From positions 1 through 17,618 of the forward strand of contig CAYXVC010000041.1 in NCBI GenBank assembly GCA_964468225.1: 17,618 nt of DNA, written 5' to 3'. The translations under genes were made by a program, and so were the position numbers. The notes beneath the pieces were generated by a model. That model made no database searches, was not told the DNA's origin, and saw only the letters and a list, made by a program, of their open reading frames with translations. How positions within the stretch are numbered: the first letter of the stretch is position 1; every line of letters begins with the position of its first letter. Source of the stretch: an uncultured Gammaproteobacteria bacterium. GTDB taxonomy: Bacteria > Pseudomonadota > Gammaproteobacteria > JAADGQ01. This document shows positions 7,267 to 13,495 of this stretch, one piece after another.

Positions 7267-8418
7267 CTATTTAATCAATGCTGGACTTTTCACTAAATCA
7301 GTCATAACCCCCTCTAAACCTGAATAGACGTGAATATTTCCAATACGCTCAGTGACTTTTTCCAAGACCTCGAGCTCTTTCAGACGCATCAATGTTGAGT
7401 TACCTTCCATCATTTTGGCCGTGTTATGCAGCAATCGTGTCGCTGCTGCTTCTTCACGCCGTTTAATCATATTAGCTTCCGCTGCCTTTTCAGCTTCAAC
7501 AACCTGGTTAAGAATAGTTTTCATATCTCCAGGCAAAATAATGTCACGTACACCCACACTTTTAATAGAAATGCCGTACTCCTCTACTCGTTGCCGAATA
7601 CCATCAATAATCACCTTATTCAGTGCATCTTTGTCACTCAAAAGTTGATCCAGAGTTTTGGTTCCAACCGCCTCACGCAGTTGTAACTGAAACTCTCGGT
7701 ACAGGTAGTCATTAAAGTCCGCCAACTTACTCTGTGCAAGTTGTGGATCACCGACTCGATAAGCAGCAGAAAGATTCAGCCTCAGGCTGACTCGATCTTT
7801 AGTCAGAATTTCCTGCCCACTCACTTCAATGTTTTGCAGGCGCAAATCAATGTGCCTAACTTCTACATTACGGTGATACTTCCAGAAACCATAGCTCCCT
7901 GGTTTCAACATCTCTTCGAGCTTACCATTAACCAGCAACAGCCCTACATGATGATCATTCACTTCAGTATAGTAAATGACCTGCCCTGCCTGCCGCGTCA
8001 ATAGCGCTTTATGACCTCGGCTCAGCAGAGCTAATACAGCCTTTGATACACGGAACTCCTCTGAAATTTCAATCCGTTTCAACTCAGTACGTTCGAGCCC
8101 TTTCCAATAAATTTTGAAACTACCTGGCGCAACGATATCTACAAGCTGGCCATCACGGTACAACAACCCTACTTCATAATCGCTGAGTTGATAGGCTTCC
8201 AGATAGTCACGGGTTTTATCCACGAAAGTTGATACCAAAAGTTTACCCAAACTATGATCCAGCTCATGACGAGTGATATCAAAGCGTTCGATTTTGATAT
8301 TGCCAAGTAGATCGAAATAACGATAACTTCCTGGCTCAAGGACTTTCGCAAAGCGATTCATCTTAAACAGGAAAGCCCTTTCGTTATCTGCAATTTCAAT
8401 TTTTTTAACGAAAAACAT
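7267..8418 (-). CDS. SPFH/band-7 (stomatin/prohibitin/flotillin/HflKC) domain protein with repeated N-terminal PGS[YF] modules
   Basis: 383 aa. The C-terminal half (QEILTKDRVSLRLNLSAAYRVGDPQ ... GISIKSVGVRDIILPGDMKTILNQVVEAEKAAEANMIKRREEAAA) is a typical SPFH core. The N-terminal half has three approximately 70-aa-spaced repeats: LEPGSYRYFDL..., VAPGSFKIYWKG..., LKPGSYGFWKYH... No N-terminal TM helix. Strong SD (AGGAGG) precedes the ATG at 8418. Confidence 0.75.
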   Translation of the reverse strand: MFFVKKIEIADNERAFLFKMNRFAKVLEPGSYRYFDLLGNIKIERFDITRHELDHSLGKLLVSTFVDKTRDYLEAYQLSDYEVGLLYRDGQLVDIVAPGSFKIYWKGLERTELKRIEISEEFRVSKAVLALLSRGHKALLTRQAGQVIYYTEVNDHHVGLLLVNGKLEEMLKPGSYGFWKYHRNVEVRHIDLRLQNIEVSGQEILTKDRVSLRLNLSAAYRVGDPQLAQSKLADFNDYLYREFQLQLREAVGTKTLDQLLSDKDALNKVIIDGIRQRVEEYGISIKSVGVRDIILPGDMKTILNQVVEAEKAAEANMIKRREEAAATRLLHNTAKMMEGNSTLMRLKELEVLEKVTERIGNIHVYSGLEGVMTDLVKSPALIK

Positions 8419-8665
8419 AGTGCCTCCTAAAATAACTGTTTTTTATAAAAAGTCGGGTGCTCTCCGCTGTAAAAACGGAATATCACATTTAATAAATAAG
8501 TACTGTATTGAGCGGTTAATAGAGTCACTACATTCATTTTCACCTTTACCAGCCCAAAAACATCAAGCAATAACTCGATCAACTTCAATACCATACGTAT
8601 TCACCAAAGCGGTCACATTCGGCAATTACACCGCTGCTTGAAATACGATATAACCGCATATCAAA

Positions 8666-8757
8666 CAAAAGCACCCTTGGTTTACTACTAAAAGGGAGTC
8701 GAACCCCAGCCTATACAGGCTTTACCATTAAACACGTTCCAATAACGTGTGCTTTTG
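8666..8757 (-). ncRNA. tRNA-like element A: cloverleaf-like fold closed by a 9-bp stem, with a T-arm-like GGTTCGACTCC loop
   Basis: CAAAAGCAC at 8666-8674 is the exact reverse complement of GTGCTTTTG at 8749-8757, giving a 9-bp closing stem. Three hairpins lie between them: ACACGTT/AACGTGT at 8732-8750, AGCCT/AGGCT at 8708-8721, and the T-arm-like GGGGTTCGACTCCC at 8694-8707. On the minus strand the closing 3' strand continues into a U-rich tail (GUGCUUUUGUUUGAUAU). Arm lengths do not fit a canonical tRNA (7-bp D-like stem, 19-nt spacer after the T-arm). The 5' end shares 9 nt with the 3' end of element B. Confidence 0.35.
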
Positions 8758-8823
8758 GCCGGACTCGAACCGACAACAAACGAATTAATATTTCACCGCT
8801 CTACCTTATTGAGCTACCAAGCA
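8749..8823 (-). ncRNA. tRNA-like element B: 75-nt tRNA-shaped sequence, either a pseudo-tRNA or a tRNA mimic
   Basis: Minus-strand read 5'-TGCTTGG-TA-GCTC-AATAAGGTA-GAGC-G-GTGAA-ATATTAA-TTCGT-TTGTT-GTCGG-TTCGAGT-CCGGC-CAAAAGCA-3'. The D-arm is canonical (A14, G18G19). The T-arm is canonical with a TTCGAGT loop. The anticodon stem is weak and the anticodon would be AUU, which is not a normal bacterial anticodon. The acceptor stem needs a 2-nt AA bulge. No CCA is encoded. Lies 150 nt 3' of rtcB on the same strand. Confidence 0.5.
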
Positions 8824-8970
8824 GGTGTTTAGCCTCTTGACTGTGTTGGTACACATATCGCCAACGGCGGATGCGCCAGACCGGACATAGAGCCGGAACC
8901 GCTAACACAGGCAAGTCATGCCAAACTCTTTTGGTTTGCACGTTTTCCAACATGCAAACAACATTCTTTA

Positions 8971-10209
8971 TTATCCCTTTACACAAACCACCTGACGCAG
9001 CGTATGCACAATTTCAACCAGATCTTTTTGCGCCGCCATCACCGCATCAATTGATTTATACGCGGCGGGTGTTTCATCAATCACACCTGCATCTTTACGG
9101 CATTCCACCCCCGCCGTGGCCTCCAGATGCTCATCCAGACTGACAATTTTCTTTGCCTGAGTGCGGGACATCACCCTTCCCGCACCATGGCTGCAACTAT
9201 GGAAACTTTCATCGTTACCCAAGCCACGAACAATAAAAGAACGGGCTCCCATGCTGCCGGGAATAATGCCTAACTCACCCACTCGGGCACGCACCGCACC
9301 TTTACGTGTCACCAGAACGTTTTCACCGTAGTGGTTTTCACGAGAAACATAGTTGTGGTGGCAGTTCACGGCCTGTGCTTGTGCCTCAAATGCAATCGAT
9401 ATTTCATTGCGCATTGCAGCAATCACTCGCGCCATCATCACTTCGCGGTTAATTCGTGCATACTCCTGCGCCCACTCCACCGCTTCTACATACTGCGTAA
9501 AGTGATCGCTCCCCTCGGGTAGATAGGCCAGATCTTTATCTGGCAAGTTCACAAACCAACGCTCCATATCTCTCTTGGCTACGTCTATAAAGTGTGTGCC
9601 AATGCGATTACCAACACCGCGTGAGCCGCTATGCAACATAAACCAGACGTCATCACTCTCATCCAGACACACCTCAATAAAATGGTTACCTGTTCCCAGC
9701 GTTCCCAGATGATTGACGTTATTGGTTTTTTTCAACAGATTATGCTGTTCGCACAAACGATCAAACCCCGGCTTCAAGGCCTTCCACGCCTGTGCAACAT
9801 CCTCGGGCAAATCACCCCAGGCGCCTTTATCACGCTTAGGCATACGACGACCACGCGAGGAAGATCGCCCATGTGGCACTGCCGTTTCAATTGCAGCACG
9901 AACACCACTCAGATTGTCTGGCAGTTGATCTGCCTTTAGCGACGTTTTCACAGCCATCATTCCGCAACCAATATCAACGCCTACTGCGGCTGGAATCACC
10001 GCTCCAATGGTGGACACCACACTGCCAATGGTCGCACCTTTACCCAGATGTACATCCGGCATGACTGCCACCCATTTATGAATAAAAGGCAGGCTCGCAA
10101 TATTTCTCAGCTGCTGACGTGCTTGCTCCTCAAATGGAACACCCAGAGTCCAGGATTTAATAGGAACCCCTGCATGGTCATCCATCACTTCATAAGATTT
10201 TTCGCACAT
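8971..10209 (-). CDS. rtcB: RNA-splicing ligase RtcB (3'-phosphate/2',3'-cyclic phosphate with 5'-OH RNA ligase)
   Basis: 412 aa, collinear with E. coli RtcB. Matches include PDVHLGKGATIGSV, AAVGVDIGCGM, HLGTLGTGNHFIE, MLHSGSRGVGN, NCHHNYV, GIIPGSMGARSFIVRGLGN and the C-terminus VMAAQKDLVEIVHTLRQVVCVKG. SD AAGGAGA lies 8 nt upstream of the ATG. Confidence 0.95.
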   Translation of the reverse strand: MCEKSYEVMDDHAGVPIKSWTLGVPFEEQARQQLRNIASLPFIHKWVAVMPDVHLGKGATIGSVVSTIGAVIPAAVGVDIGCGMMAVKTSLKADQLPDNLSGVRAAIETAVPHGRSSSRGRRMPKRDKGAWGDLPEDVAQAWKALKPGFDRLCEQHNLLKKTNNVNHLGTLGTGNHFIEVCLDESDDVWFMLHSGSRGVGNRIGTHFIDVAKRDMERWFVNLPDKDLAYLPEGSDHFTQYVEAVEWAQEYARINREVMMARVIAAMRNEISIAFEAQAQAVNCHHNYVSRENHYGENVLVTRKGAVRARVGELGIIPGSMGARSFIVRGLGNDESFHSCSHGAGRVMSRTQAKKIVSLDEHLEATAGVECRKDAGVIDETPAAYKSIDAVMAAQKDLVEIVHTLRQVVCVKG

Positions 10210-10250: not shown

Positions 10251-10267
10251 TTGCAGATAGCGTGCCA
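10251..10267 (-). promoter_or_regulatory. Sigma-54 (RpoN) -24/-12 promoter of rtcB
   Basis: Minus strand reads TGGCACGCTATCTGCAA. The spacing is GG-N10-GC, matching the TGGCACG-N4-TTGCW consensus with one mismatch in the -12 box. It lies about 45 nt upstream of the rtcB ATG and is divergent from the sigma-54 activator gene rtcR. Confidence 0.8.
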
Positions 10268-10412: not shown

Positions 10413-12002
10413 ATGAAAACAGTAGCAATCAGTTTGTTAGGGACGGTTCTGGATCAAAGAGGAGGAAAGAGGCGCCGGAAGAAGTGGCGGCCCACGATCT
10501 CCTTATGCCAACAGGAAGATTTATTGATTGACCGCATGGAGCTGGTTTTTCAGCCACACTTCCAGCGCCTTGCTGATCAAGTCACCAAAGATATCCAGAG
10601 CATATCACCCAACACTGAAGTCAGACATCATCATATTGAGCTGACAGACCCATGGGATTTTGAAGAGGTTTATGGCTGCCTGCATGACTTCGCTCGCCAA
10701 TACAGCTTTGATCGAGATAAAGAAAAATACTTGATTCACATCACCACAGGCACACATGTCGCACAAATCTGTCTCTACCTTCTAACCGAAGCACACTATC
10801 TGCCAGGCCGTTTAATACAAACTTCACCTGCTCAAGACCACAGCGAATCGGGCACACACCATATCATCGATCTGGACTTGTCAAAGTATGACCAAATTGC
10901 ATCTCGTTTTTCGCGGGAACATAGTGAAGGCACTGTTTATTTAAAGGGCGGTATCGAAACCAAAAACATAGCATTCAATAACATCATCACCCAATTGGAA
11001 AAAATTTCCATCAACTCTGATGATCCCATTTTACTCACAGGCCCTACTGGAGTTGGCAAATCACTACTGGCTAAACGCATCTATCAGCTCAAACAAAACC
11101 GCGGACAAGTTCAGGGCCGATTAGTTGAAGTTAACTGCGCAACCTTGCGCGGCGATAGCGCCATGTCCGCCCTGTTTGGCCATAAAAAAGGGGCGTTCAC
11201 AGGGGCTTCCACACAACGCGCCGGCCTACTGCTGGAAGCACATGATGGCATTCTGTTTTTAGATGAAATTGGCGAGCTGGGTCTGGATGAGCAAGCGATG
11301 CTATTACGTGCAATTGAAGATAAAGACTTTATGCCGTTTGGATCAGACACTCCCGTTAACAGCAACTTTCAACTGATTTCTGGCACTAATCGAGACCTGC
11401 TTTCCGACAGCCGTAAAGGTAAATTCCGTGAAGATCTGTTAGCCCGAATCAATCTCTGGAGCTATCGCCTACCCTCGCTCAAAGAGCGTATCGAAGATTT
11501 AGAAAGCAATCTGGATTACGAGCTTGATCGCTTTACCCAGAAAGCAGGCACTCTTGTCAGTTTCAACAAAGCTGCACGTACACGTTATATGAAATTTGCA
11601 CACAGCGCTGATGCCACTTGGCGCGCCAATTTTCGTGACCTCAATGCCAGCGTCACTCGCATGTCAACCCTTGCAGACGGTGGCCGCATTACAGAAGAAG
11701 TAGTCAATGATGAAATTAATCGTCTAAAGCACGATTGGTCTGTTACCTCACAAAAGTGGAACCCCAAAGCCGTGACCGCAAAATTTCTGGACGCAGAAAT
11801 GCATGCGAAGCTGGATCTATTCGAACACATTCAGCTATCAGGTGTCATTAAAGTATGTGAAAATGCAAAATCGATGGCGGAAGCAGGACGAATGTTGTTT
11901 GATCAAAGTCGGGAACAGAAAAAATCAGTGAATGACAGCCATCGACTGAAACAGTTATTAGGGAAATATGACCTGAATTTTAATCAGCTCATGAGCAAAT
12001 AA
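10413..12002 (+). CDS. rtcR: Sigma-54-dependent transcriptional activator RtcR (CARF-like sensor, AAA+, HTH)
   Basis: 529 aa, collinear with E. coli RtcR. N-terminus MKTVAISLLGTVLD...KWRPTISLCQQEDLLIDRMEL. Walker A GPTGVGKSLLAKRIY. Sigma-54 contact motif GAFTGA. Further matches VNCATLRGDSAMSALFGH, LFLDEIGELGLDEQAMLLRAIEDK, REDLLARINLW. C-terminal HTH region. Confidence 0.95.
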   Translation: MKTVAISLLGTVLDQRGGKRRRKKWRPTISLCQQEDLLIDRMELVFQPHFQRLADQVTKDIQSISPNTEVRHHHIELTDPWDFEEVYGCLHDFARQYSFDRDKEKYLIHITTGTHVAQICLYLLTEAHYLPGRLIQTSPAQDHSESGTHHIIDLDLSKYDQIASRFSREHSEGTVYLKGGIETKNIAFNNIITQLEKISINSDDPILLTGPTGVGKSLLAKRIYQLKQNRGQVQGRLVEVNCATLRGDSAMSALFGHKKGAFTGASTQRAGLLLEAHDGILFLDEIGELGLDEQAMLLRAIEDKDFMPFGSDTPVNSNFQLISGTNRDLLSDSRKGKFREDLLARINLWSYRLPSLKERIEDLESNLDYELDRFTQKAGTLVSFNKAARTRYMKFAHSADATWRANFRDLNASVTRMSTLADGGRITEEVVNDEINRLKHDWSVTSQKWNPKAVTAKFLDAEMHAKLDLFEHIQLSGVIKVCENAKSMAEAGRMLFDQSREQKKSVNDSHRLKQLLGKYDLNFNQLMSK

Positions 12003-12071: not shown

Positions 12072-12548
12072 ATGTCAAAAAACAGATTTATCGGCGTCAT
12101 ATCTGATACTCACGGGCTTGTGAGACCTGAAGCCATTGCAGCCATGCAAGGTGCAGAGCTGATTATTCATGCTGGTGATATTGGTGGAGAAAATATCATC
12201 CAGAAATTTTCAGAAATAGCGCCCATGATGTATGTGCGTGGCAATACCGATTATTGCGGCTGGTCACTCCAACATGCCCCTGAAGTTGATGTGATCCAGC
12301 ATGAAAACTTCCACTTTTATGCGATTCACATCCTCAGAGAGATTGATATTGACCCTGCTGCTGCCGGTTTTGATGTGGTGGTCAGCGGACATACTCACAA
12401 ACCACTGATTGAATATAAAGATAATGTACTTTACATCAACCCGGGAAGCTGTGGCCCTCGGCGCTTTGATCTGCCCATTTCAGTGGGGCGCATTGATATC
12501 ACTTCAACGGGCTTAAAAGCTAAAATTATCGAATTGCTATCATGTTAA
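12072..12548 (+). CDS. YfcE/MJ0936-family metallophosphoesterase (phosphodiesterase)
   Basis: 158 aa. Metal-binding motifs in the correct order: GVISDTHG, GDIGG, RGNTD, SGHTH, NPGS. Confidence 0.85.
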   Translation: MSKNRFIGVISDTHGLVRPEAIAAMQGAELIIHAGDIGGENIIQKFSEIAPMMYVRGNTDYCGWSLQHAPEVDVIQHENFHFYAIHILREIDIDPAAAGFDVVVSGHTHKPLIEYKDNVLYINPGSCGPRRFDLPISVGRIDITSTGLKAKIIELLSC

Positions 12549-13495
12549 ATACACTATTAAAAAAAACAGACAGCTCTCATAATATCGATAATAAAAGAGA
12601 AAGTAGTGTGACTATTTCTCTTAAGTCACTGATTAAACTACACCATCAATCCCGACAATTATCGTTTGGCACTCGCCGCAAGGTTAGCAGTGCACTATCA
12701 GGAAGTTATGCCTCTTCATTTAAAGGACGAGGTATGGATTTTGATGAAACACGCATTTATCAGCCGGGAGATGATATTCGCAGTATGGACTGGCGCGTTA
12801 CCGCTCGCACTGGCCAGCCCCATACCAAAATATTTAAAGAAGAACGTGAGCGCCCTGTTTTTTTTGTTACCGACCTCAGCGCCTCCATGCACTTTGCAAC
12901 ACGCGGTGCATTCAAATCAGTGATTGCAGCGCAGGCTACGGCCTTATTAGCGTGGGCAGCGGCAGATCATGGTGATCGCGTAGGCGGGATTATTTTTTCG
13001 GATGAACAGCATGTTGAGCTGCCTCCAAAAGCCCGACAACATGGCGTGTTGCGCCTTTTGAAAACATTAGAGAGACTAGATTCAAATTTAGACAATGATT
13101 CGTCTGCACAGGGATTAGTTCAAGCGCTCAACCGATTAAGAAAAATCACTCATCCTGGTAGCCTTATTTTTATTTTAAGTGACTTTTACCACCTGGATGA
13201 AGAGGCAAAGCGCCATTTCAGTTATCTATCCAGACACAATGATATTGTCGGTATTTTAATTCGTGACCCACTGGAAATTGCACCACCACCACCTGATCGT
13301 TATAGCATCAGCAACGGTCAAAACATATCTGTACTCAATATTCACAATAAAAAACTCCGGAATCAGTACCACGCTTACTTTCAGGAAAAGCATGAGCGTA
13401 TTAATAGTGTTTTTCGCAAACACGGCGCACGCCTAATTGAACTTTCAACCCATCAGGATGTTTTTAGTACGTTGCGTCACCAGCTTAAAACCTAG
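12542..13495 (+). CDS. DUF58 domain protein (vWA-like fold; the family is usually associated with MoxR AAA+ ATPases)
   Basis: 317 aa. Family hallmarks present: GMDFDETRIYQPGDDIRSMDWRVTART, the aspartate box FFVTDLSASM, GDRVGGIIFSD, and LIFILSDF near the C-terminal third. Start overlaps the upstream phosphoesterase stop by 7 nt. Confidence 0.75.
   Translation: MLNTLLKKTDSSHNIDNKRESSVTISLKSLIKLHHQSRQLSFGTRRKVSSALSGSYASSFKGRGMDFDETRIYQPGDDIRSMDWRVTARTGQPHTKIFKEERERPVFFVTDLSASMHFATRGAFKSVIAAQATALLAWAAADHGDRVGGIIFSDEQHVELPPKARQHGVLRLLKTLERLDSNLDNDSSAQGLVQALNRLRKITHPGSLIFILSDFYHLDEEAKRHFSYLSRHNDIVGILIRDPLEIAPPPPDRYSISNGQNISVLNIHNKKLRNQYHAYFQEKHERINSVFRKHGARLIELSTHQDVFSTLRHQLKT

Follow-up and report, generated by a model that had tools for sequence, protein, structure and literature searches.

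RtcB/RtcR RNA-repair loci are being actively studied, and accessory components of these loci are still unexplained. A pair consisting of a tRNA-like RNA (b7a-tRNA) and an SPFH protein was predicted to belong to them ten years ago: a 2018 preprint, in its summary of Burroughs & Aravind 2016, presents b7a-tRNA as a predicted, strongly tRNA-like noncoding RNA beside a Band-7 protein and RtcB, and as a substitute for YrlA/Rsr in RNA-repair operons (bioRxiv 10.1101/312249). The present analysis concerns a stretch of 17,618 nucleotides (nt) from an uncultured gammaproteobacterium (contig CAYXVC010000041.1 of assembly GCA_964468225.1; the whole stretch is hereafter called the window), in which a tRNA-like element is located on the minus strand between rtcB and a gene for a soluble SPFH/Band-7 protein ("slipin"). 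Among the literature searched, the name b7a-tRNA was found solely in the preprint mentioned, the original 2016 description lying outside that search; the RNA is not a topic of the later Aravind-group papers, of the CoCoNuT paper or of the RlaP paper, and publications on the rtc locus of P. aeruginosa class the SPFH gene (PA4582/PaFlo8) as functionally uncharacterized and contain no mention of the RNA. Experimental work on the b7a-tRNA/SPFH pair was not found in the literature searched, and there is no Rfam family for the RNA.

Judged by its sequence and its neighborhood, the window element is a member of the b7a-tRNA class, situated in a locus variant without rtcA; the class being already named, the window adds a new member to it. 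A first-pass annotation of this DNA had overlooked both the SPFH partner gene and the existing name. We consider it probable that b7a-tRNA is the RNA half of a conserved pair formed with the soluble SPFH/slipin protein, that this pair replaces Rsr (Ro60) and YrlA in RNA-repair loci controlled by RtcR and sigma-54, and that the RNA is transcribed by read-through from rtcB. To the earlier prediction are added here a calibrated covariance model, evidence from covariation for a real, structured RNA, and evidence that its link is with the SPFH gene and not with rtcB; in addition, a second module with a T-arm and an extensive closed domain in the leader of the SPFH gene are described.

A conserved family of structured RNAs

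For comparison, 80 rtcB loci were taken from reference genomes, which together with the window gave 81 sources (individual loci are designated by L numbers). In the closest gammaproteobacterial loci, ARAGORN called tRNA-like elements with odd and varying anticodons approximately 1.2-1.7 kb downstream of rtcB, and 3' of these calls the order of the window recurred: a hairpin, the strand (T)GGTAAAG, a short hairpin, and GGGGTTCGAnTCCCC. A calibrated covariance model built from 13 sequences (R1) recognized 15 of the 81 sources at 98-128 bits, all else (ordinary tRNAs, tandem tRNAs, YrlA) scoring at most 68 bits; L012 and L013 were not part of the seed alignment, yet reached 102 and 98 bits. The R1 family comprises 24 members at 85-128 bits, and the window RNA scores 101 bits over positions 8691-8829.

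The 24-member alignment held standard pairs in 94.6% of its cells, versus 34-45% with the partners slid, and 25 of the 34 pairs changed on both sides (the pairing figures being somewhat inflated, because the alignment was fitted to R1); none of 500 shuffles reached any of the observed measures. An independent check based on MAFFT revealed the same pairing pattern. The MAFFT alignment (A1) misaligned the short hairpin H2 (see Table 1), and the pair counts were taken from the model-based alignment. A metagenome scan for two T-arms at a spacing of 44-74 nt returned mostly tRNA arrays, att scars and tRNAs beside permuted transfer-messenger RNA (tmRNA) genes; new members were L115 and L129 only, and L190 is a variant. 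At the DNA level the RNA had no match in plasmids, and the SPFH protein had none in phages. As a separate observation, the metagenomic loci L103, L191, L197 and L147 contain a tRNA followed by an apparent permuted two-piece tmRNA gene (a piece with T-arm and CCA, then GGGG..CUGGUUUCGACAGGG).

Table 1. Positions of the features discussed, in coordinates of the window.
Feature	Position	Strand	Evidence or remark
rtcR (CARF and sigma-54 activator)	10413-12002	+	Pfam RtcR 275 bits, Sigma54_activat 158 bits
Sigma-54-type promoter TGGCACGCTATCTGCA, GG-N10-GC spacing	10252-10267	-	Pattern search; 43 nt before rtcB start codon
rtcB RNA ligase	8971-10209	-	Pfam RtcB 441 bits
Leader AACACC directly 5' of cloverleaf	8824-8829	-	Kept as (A/G)ACACC in most members
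Module 1, tRNA-like cloverleaf (b7a-tRNA)	8750-8823	-	ARAGORN, Rfam, model R1, covariation counts, loop table
H1, optional linker hairpin ACACGTT-ATTGG-AACGTGT	8732-8750	-	90% of cells paired, all 5 pairs change on both sides
Module 2, first part: single-stranded TGGTA(AA) and hairpin H2 (AGCC-TGTATA-GGCT)	8708-8727	-	Alignment
Module 2, second part: second T-arm T2, GGGG-TTCGACT-CCCT	8693-8707	-	Alignment; hairpin GGGGTTCGACTCCCT
Rod-like closed domain of the SPFH leader, ~220 nt	8455-8676	-	RNAalifold, 7 clade members; includes GTGCTTTTG strand
Spacer, ribosome-binding site AGGAGG and ATG of SPFH gene	8416-8454	-	AGGAGGCAnnATG conserved in clade alignment
Soluble SPFH/Band-7 (slipin) gene, 383 aa	7267-8418	-	Pfam Band_7 107 bits

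The cloverleaf and its anticodon loop

ARAGORN called module 1 as tRNA-Asn(ATT) at 8751-8823(-), and Rfam RF00005 matched 8750-8822(-) with 41 bits (cut-off 29); in the RF00005 alignment the 5' acceptor strand carries a one-base deletion and the acceptor pairs are non-standard. The D-arm TAGCTCAATAAGGTAGAGC and the T-arm T1 (GTCGG-TTCGAGT-CCGGC) are present, the anticodon loop AUAUUAA is formally canonical and would present AUU, and the acceptor stem contains a 2-nt bulge and is followed by ACA, not by the CCA that most gammaproteobacterial tRNA genes encode. All of these traits had been described correctly in the first-pass annotation, as had the strand of the element and its position relative to rtcB. 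Its concern that a canonical tRNA might have been misfolded by hand was borne out as far as a tRNA is called by both ARAGORN and Rfam, but not in respect of the acceptor stem, which is abnormal, or of the anticodon, which is not conserved.

Across the 24 members, the D-arm with its stem GCUC/GAGC and the equivalents of U8, A14, G18-G19 and T54-T55-C56-A58 are invariant; the acceptor stem is the weakest helix (82.6% paired) and has a bulge or mismatches in the window and the relatives nearest to it. Anticodon loops of 7 nt occur in 16 members, of 6 nt in six, of 9 nt in one and of 28 nt in one. Canonical loops (U33 plus R37) occur in 11 of the 24, with eight different anticodons among them (CAT four times; GTT, AGT, TAG, TTT, ATT, GAA and GAT once each), and even close relatives differ in this loop: AUU, GUU, a 6-nt loop, UUG, CUG without U33, and a 28-nt insert. 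Because the loops vary in length and sequence across the family, the RNA does not decode. A motif like AACACC, which abuts the cloverleaf on its 5' side, is unusual in tRNA leaders; no pairing partner was found for it, and there was no obvious covariation with the TGGTA strand of module 2 as judged by eye.

It is hardly credible that the element is a decoding or recently decayed tRNA-Asn (AUU), or a scar left by integration into a tRNA gene, although ARAGORN and Rfam both call a tRNA and some homologues are near-canonical (e.g. L012 with 71.7 bits, CAU and an encoded CCA). The anticodon is unconserved even among close relatives, the acceptor stem of the window is bulged and lacks CCA, and position and flanks are kept across orders of Gammaproteobacteria. 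The decayed-tRNA or scar origin, which the first-pass annotation had left as its alternative, is further contradicted by the two T-arms: T1 (GTCGG..CCGGC) and T2 (GGGG..CCCT) are unlike in sequence, and either one is conserved across species and families, whereas genuine att scars (L118, L133, L148, L161) repeat the 3' half of the tRNA itself, with the same T-arm.

Hypervariable anticodon loops in an otherwise fixed cloverleaf would also be expected of a sentinel or decoy for anticodon nucleases, i.e. a tRNA mimic that is cut by, or competitively inhibits, tRNA-targeting toxins. Such a function would accord with the activation of RtcR by damaged tRNA fragments and with the decoy role proposed for YrlA (PMC7790460), and tRNA-gene arrays adjoin the module in L009, L207 and L208. 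Nevertheless, it appears quite improbable: eight of the 24 loops are not 7 nt long (6-nt loops and the 28-nt insertion included) and therefore do not mimic a real anticodon loop, in most loci the RNA is positioned downstream of the promoter that it would need to induce, and YrlA itself is left uncut by the Salmonella nuclease (PMC7790460).

Module 2 and the closed domain of the SPFH leader

The cloverleaf is followed by the linker hairpin H1, which is present in most members (absent in three, doubled in two), and by module 2. The GG of the single-stranded, A-rich strand that opens module 2 is kept in 24 of 24 members; H2, a 4-bp hairpin with GNRA- or UUCG-type loops across the members, is 95.8% paired, and all four of its pairs covary (AGCC/GGCT, AGGC/GCCT, AACC/GGTT, GGTC/GACT); T2 is near-invariant, with the form GGGG/GAGG-TTCRANT-CCCC/CCTC in 24 of 24. 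We interpret module 2 as a reduced second tRNA "elbow", composed of GG strand, short tetraloop hairpin and T-arm. At the equivalent position, Photobacterium possesses a complete second cloverleaf. The existence of two tRNA-derived modules, as suspected in the first-pass annotation, is thus substantiated: the cloverleaf and the second T-arm module are both conserved in the 24 members.

The architecture that had been drawn for the second element was upheld only in part. The strands of its inverted repeat exist (CAAAAGCAC at 8757-8749 and GTGCTTTTG at 8674-8666), as does its second T-loop hairpin (8707-8693), but the four-way cloverleaf with a 9-bp closing stem was not confirmed: the stem is perfect in the window only, is interrupted at its center by a C.C mismatch in the closest relative (L201), and in 22 other members does not outperform shuffled sequence, so that the conservation of stems expected in related loci was observed for the cloverleaf, H2 and T2, which covary, but not for the 9-bp stem. 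The 3' strand of the latter takes part instead in a covarying long-range helix with 8464-8455, in favor of which a local hairpin of the window ("H3", 8684-8662) was likewise set aside. The U-rich tail, formerly regarded as the end of the element, is not a conserved terminator; the single terminator-like match is the second T-arm itself.

The long-range helix, in which GGGTGCTTTT (8676-8667) pairs with GAGAGCACCC (8464-8455), closes the rod-like domain of the SPFH leader. According to the RNAalifold prediction for seven clade members, the rod contains 87 pairs; 91.3% of the cells pair (39-47% with partners slid) and 38 pairs change on both sides (8-17 with partners slid), controls that are only partly independent because the structure was derived from the same seven sequences. 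Its closing helix is 100% paired, and six of the ten pairs covary. An analogous closing helix (AGGCCCAU/GUGGGCCU, or GGGCUCC/GGGAGCCC) was the only helix obtained in other clades, which are difficult to align. The rod matches no Rfam family, and single-sequence folding was uninformative (z-scores of -0.1 and -0.9).

The rod ends approximately 35 nt before the ribosome-binding site of the SPFH gene, and this location bears on the main rival explanation, namely that the whole structure is a purely cis-acting leader of the SPFH mRNA, in which cloverleaf, second T-arm and rod would serve as processing, stability or translation-control elements without any trans-acting ribonucleoprotein (RNP). For instance, RNase P cleavage might uncouple the SPFH mRNA from rtcB(A), or the rod might gate the ribosome-binding site; that the covarying closed domain stops just short of the Shine-Dalgarno sequence would fit such a role. 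The invariant nucleotides of the tRNA tertiary contacts, together with a D-arm identical to that of YrlA, exceed the needs of a processing signal.

Coupling to the SPFH gene and exclusion of Rsr

It is the downstream SPFH gene, and not rtcB as such, to which the RNA is coupled: an SPFH homologue is located directly downstream in 14 of the 15 RNA-bearing rtcB loci and in none of the 66 others, and in the exception (L009) the sequence ends before the position where the gene would lie. RNA and SPFH gene co-occur in 22 of the 24 family members (in the other two, the sequence ends earlier or there is no homologue), with the RNA about 280-400 nt upstream on the same strand; in the clade of the window, the distance from T2 to the SPFH start is near-constant at 276-306 nt, and in the window itself the gene begins 275 nt after T2. 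When loci were collected by means of the SPFH protein only, the RNA was present in all seven, 350-400 nt upstream of the gene. The pair also stays together when it stands apart from rtcBA, as in L015 (where it is divergent from rtcR), L115, L207 and L208.

Rsr is encoded in 23 loci, none of which contains the RNA, and among the 15 tabulated rtcB loci with the RNA, the window included, not one yielded an Rsr homologue. This mutual exclusion with Rsr and YrlA points to an RNA-protein pair of equivalent role. The absence of rsr from the window had been recognized before, and the proposal then made, a non-decoding tRNA mimic independent of Ro/Rsr in an RtcR-controlled rtcB locus, agrees with the varied anticodons and with the lack of Rsr in the RNA-bearing loci.

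The composition of the slipin leaders differs among lineages. In L190 (203-4279), a YrlA-type permuted module is followed by the second T-arm and hairpin and then by the SPFH gene; the leader of Burkholderia consists of a stem-closed T-arm module, a cloverleaf and a hairpin, and that of Subdoligranulum of two T-arms and hairpins, with no D-arm. In Citrobacter and E. coli, a conserved leader with a sigma-54-type site contains only a lone T-arm and a hairpin; R1 finds nothing in enterobacterial slipin leaders. From these variants, one or more T-arms plus a hairpin result as the common denominator, and the cloverleaf is frequent but exchangeable.

A cis-acting leader would account for several of these observations: the RNA is always upstream of the SPFH gene, on the same strand and at a near-constant distance, no terminator separates the two, and the enterobacterial and Subdoligranulum leaders retain T-arm, hairpin and sigma-54 site in the absence of a cloverleaf. 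The exclusion of Rsr and YrlA, by suggesting a pair of equivalent role, speaks against a function restricted to the leader, which we regard as rather unlikely when taken as the complete explanation; as such, the cis-leader and the RNA-protein interpretations are compatible with each other.

Related slipin operons with sigma-54-type sites are present in approximately 30% of complete E. coli genomes, in P. aeruginosa, Burkholderia and Citrobacter; therefore, tractable hosts are available. The E. coli version is an island of slipin and nucleotidyltransferase genes located between yjbD and lysC (1629 of 5426 genomes), exemplified by L212 3501-5954 of E. coli WAT, where the Prokaryotic Genome Annotation Pipeline (PGAP) annotates no RNA. 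Citrobacter (L210, L211) harbors the pair of slipin and nucleotidyltransferase genes beside a second rtcR, without rtcBA. In L190, two WYL/WCX-domain proteins are encoded in place of the Rtc genes. Four to seven ordinary tRNA genes and an HNH endonuclease gene lie directly upstream of the b7a-tRNA/SPFH unit in L009 (7262-8632), L207 (1341-2907) and L208 (1786-2843), the array of L009 being inserted between rtcA and the RNA.

Locus organization and transcription

On the minus strand of the window, rtcB is followed by 552 nt of non-coding sequence and then by the SPFH gene, and rtcR is arranged divergently upstream of rtcB. Neither rsr nor rtcA was detected in the 17.6-kb window by Pfam and homologue comparison. 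Between rtcB and the RNA, the window (8824-8970) and its nearest relative (L201, 2454-3000) lack the cyclase gene rtcA; the order rtcB-rtcA-RNA-SPFH is found in all of the slightly more distant relatives L001, L002, L202-L205 and L209, and the absence of rtcA from the former two is a lineage-specific loss of the cyclase.

The sigma-54-type sites described here are consensus matches that have their position as sole support, the site of the window being located in the divergent rtcR-rtcB gap. The pattern search revealed a comparable site neither before the RNA nor before the SPFH gene in the window (TGGCATGACTTGC at ~8920 is similar, but has a wrong GG-GC spacing), and there was no conserved terminator between RNA and SPFH gene. 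Because a sigma-54 site precedes rtcB, none precedes the RNA and no conserved terminator intervenes, the window RNA is most likely produced by read-through from the sigma-54/RtcR-dependent rtcB promoter, as part of one rtcB-RNA-SPFH transcript. Detached units may have promoters of their own: a sigma-54-type site is located ~95 nt upstream of the RNA+SPFH unit in L015, and such sites are also present in the slipin leaders of Citrobacter, E. coli and Burkholderia. Tigecycline induced rtcB of A. baumannii 252-fold, and to the same extent the gene that immediately follows it (PMC7652931); this second gene, termed "hypothetical", may be a slipin.

Further genes were observed in the vicinity of rtc loci. 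Downstream of rtcR, the window (12072-13495, plus strand) contains genes for a metallophosphoesterase (Metallophos_2) and a DUF58/vWA protein. Recurrent rtc accessories are genes for RlaP nucleotidyltransferases and, situated between rtcB and rtcA, a small gene for a treble-clef zinc finger (zf_Tbcl), as seen in L010 (6332-7129), L202 (4231-5001), L017 (3275-3787) and L206 (1162-1581). Acidobacterial rtcB is directly preceded by large tRNA arrays (L057 632-3963, L070 54-370, L076 3531-3895), that of L057 comprising 22 tRNA genes, one of them with an atypical anticodon loop, and a tRNA-Pro is positioned just upstream of rtcB in several, mostly alphaproteobacterial, loci (L030, L031, L074, L075).

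The SPFH protein and the proposed RNA-protein pair

The sequence of the SPFH protein contains neither a hydrophobic nor a transmembrane segment. Its AlphaFold model (predicted local distance difference test, pLDDT, 82.4) consists of three five-stranded beta units, an SPFH core and a helix of ~60 residues. In Foldseek comparisons, the rings of stomatin, HflK and prohibitin matched ~230-275 columns of the model, and the major vault protein (MVP) was the only solved fold that aligned along its whole length (411-471 columns, E ~1e-10), at an identity of ~15% and a TM-score of ~0.4. Relatives of the protein form rings of 16-26 subunits, by analogy with which a ring or cage is also predicted here.

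For the proposed pair, the following course of events may be envisaged. The transcribed RNA would comprise four parts, i.e. a cloverleaf competent to adopt the L-shape but with a non-decoding loop, an optional hairpin, a reduced second tRNA-like module and a closed rod of ~220 nt; tRNA-processing enzymes might then excise a stable tRNA-shaped RNA, and this product would act together with the SPFH ring or cage, as a scaffold, a cofactor or a decoy, when tRNAs are damaged, much as YrlA acts with Rsr.

Four points weigh against this proposal. The weak acceptor stem of the window and its closest relatives could impair recognition by RNase P or the CCA enzyme. The enterobacterial slipin leaders have no cloverleaf, which implies that the SPFH gene can do without the tRNA-like module and fits a cis leader as well as a trans-acting RNP. 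Under the non-inducing conditions examined, P. aeruginosa deleted for its SPFH gene paFlo8 showed no phenotype (PMC13086221). Finally, b7a-tRNA is called unvalidated in the account of it given by the 2018 preprint (bioRxiv 10.1101/312249).

A more far-reaching and, in our estimation, unlikely version is that the functional RNA is a composite of ~370 nt (cloverleaf, second elbow and ~220-nt rod) that resides in a soluble vault-like cage of the MVP-like SPFH protein and is switched on by RtcR upon tRNA damage. In such a composite, T-arm and hairpin would be the part tied to the SPFH protein, because they persist in lineages without the cloverleaf, and the tRNA-like module would be an exchangeable effector part, because a YrlA-type module replaces it in L190. 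If an MVP-like SPFH protein did cage or scaffold a tRNA-shaped RNA, the pair would represent a bacterial counterpart of the Ro/Y-RNA and vault ribonucleoproteins.

Comparison with known systems

With b7a-tRNA as described, the window shares all three features of context, i.e. a tRNA-like RNA, an adjoining Band-7/SPFH gene and an RtcB locus; nothing in it contradicts membership, and the lack of rtcA is common to the window and L201.

YrlA (RF02553) resembles the window RNA in being a non-decoding tRNA mimic of RtcR-regulated rtcB loci, with a canonical T-loop and a ring-forming protein partner, and the D-arm of its consensus (GUAGCUCA...GGUAGAGC) is identical to that of the window cloverleaf. 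The topology is different: YrlA is circularly permuted (T-arm, closed acceptor hairpin, D-arm), has a Ro-binding stem and is encoded upstream of rtcB beside rsr, whereas the window RNA has the normal succession of D-arm and T-arm, an open acceptor stem, a location downstream of rtcB and no rsr nearby. Indeed, true YrlA copies in other rtcB loci scored 69-82 bits with RF02553 and were found upstream of rtcB in Rsr-containing loci with the T-arm before the D-arm; the window RNA scored 19.5 bits (cut-off 69). With a permissive E-value, Rfam matches over 8380-9010 were restricted to tRNA, sub-threshold YrlA and spurious miRNA families.

The Y-RNA-like identity put forward in the first-pass annotation was accordingly not retained, given this score and the unpermuted module order. 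That the element is a YrlA-type Y RNA binding a Ro60/Rsr encoded elsewhere in the genome is very improbable: the shared D-arm and locus type and one GNCGAAnG-like motif at 8623 would suit it, but Rsr is absent from the window and the other 14 tabulated RNA-bearing rtcB loci, and a motif such as that at 8623 is expected ~0.3 times by chance and is exact in only three of seven clade members.

In operons of the tRNA-tufB type, genuine decoding tRNA genes are embedded in an mRNA operon. The likeness to the window consists in a cloverleaf that forms part of a polycistronic transcript, which RNase P, by cutting there, would split into an upstream and a downstream mRNA; the difference lies in the anticodon loop, which in the window-type RNA is non-conserved and often non-canonical.

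Vaults are soluble assemblies of the SPFH type, with which a small structured RNA is associated (the particle consists of MVP, vault RNA and the TROVE protein TEP1). The beta repeats, SPFH-like shoulder and long helix of MVP find their match in the model of the SPFH protein; at ~15% identity and a TM-score of ~0.4, this constitutes a resemblance and not a membership, and for the protein of the window both assembly and RNA binding are predictions.

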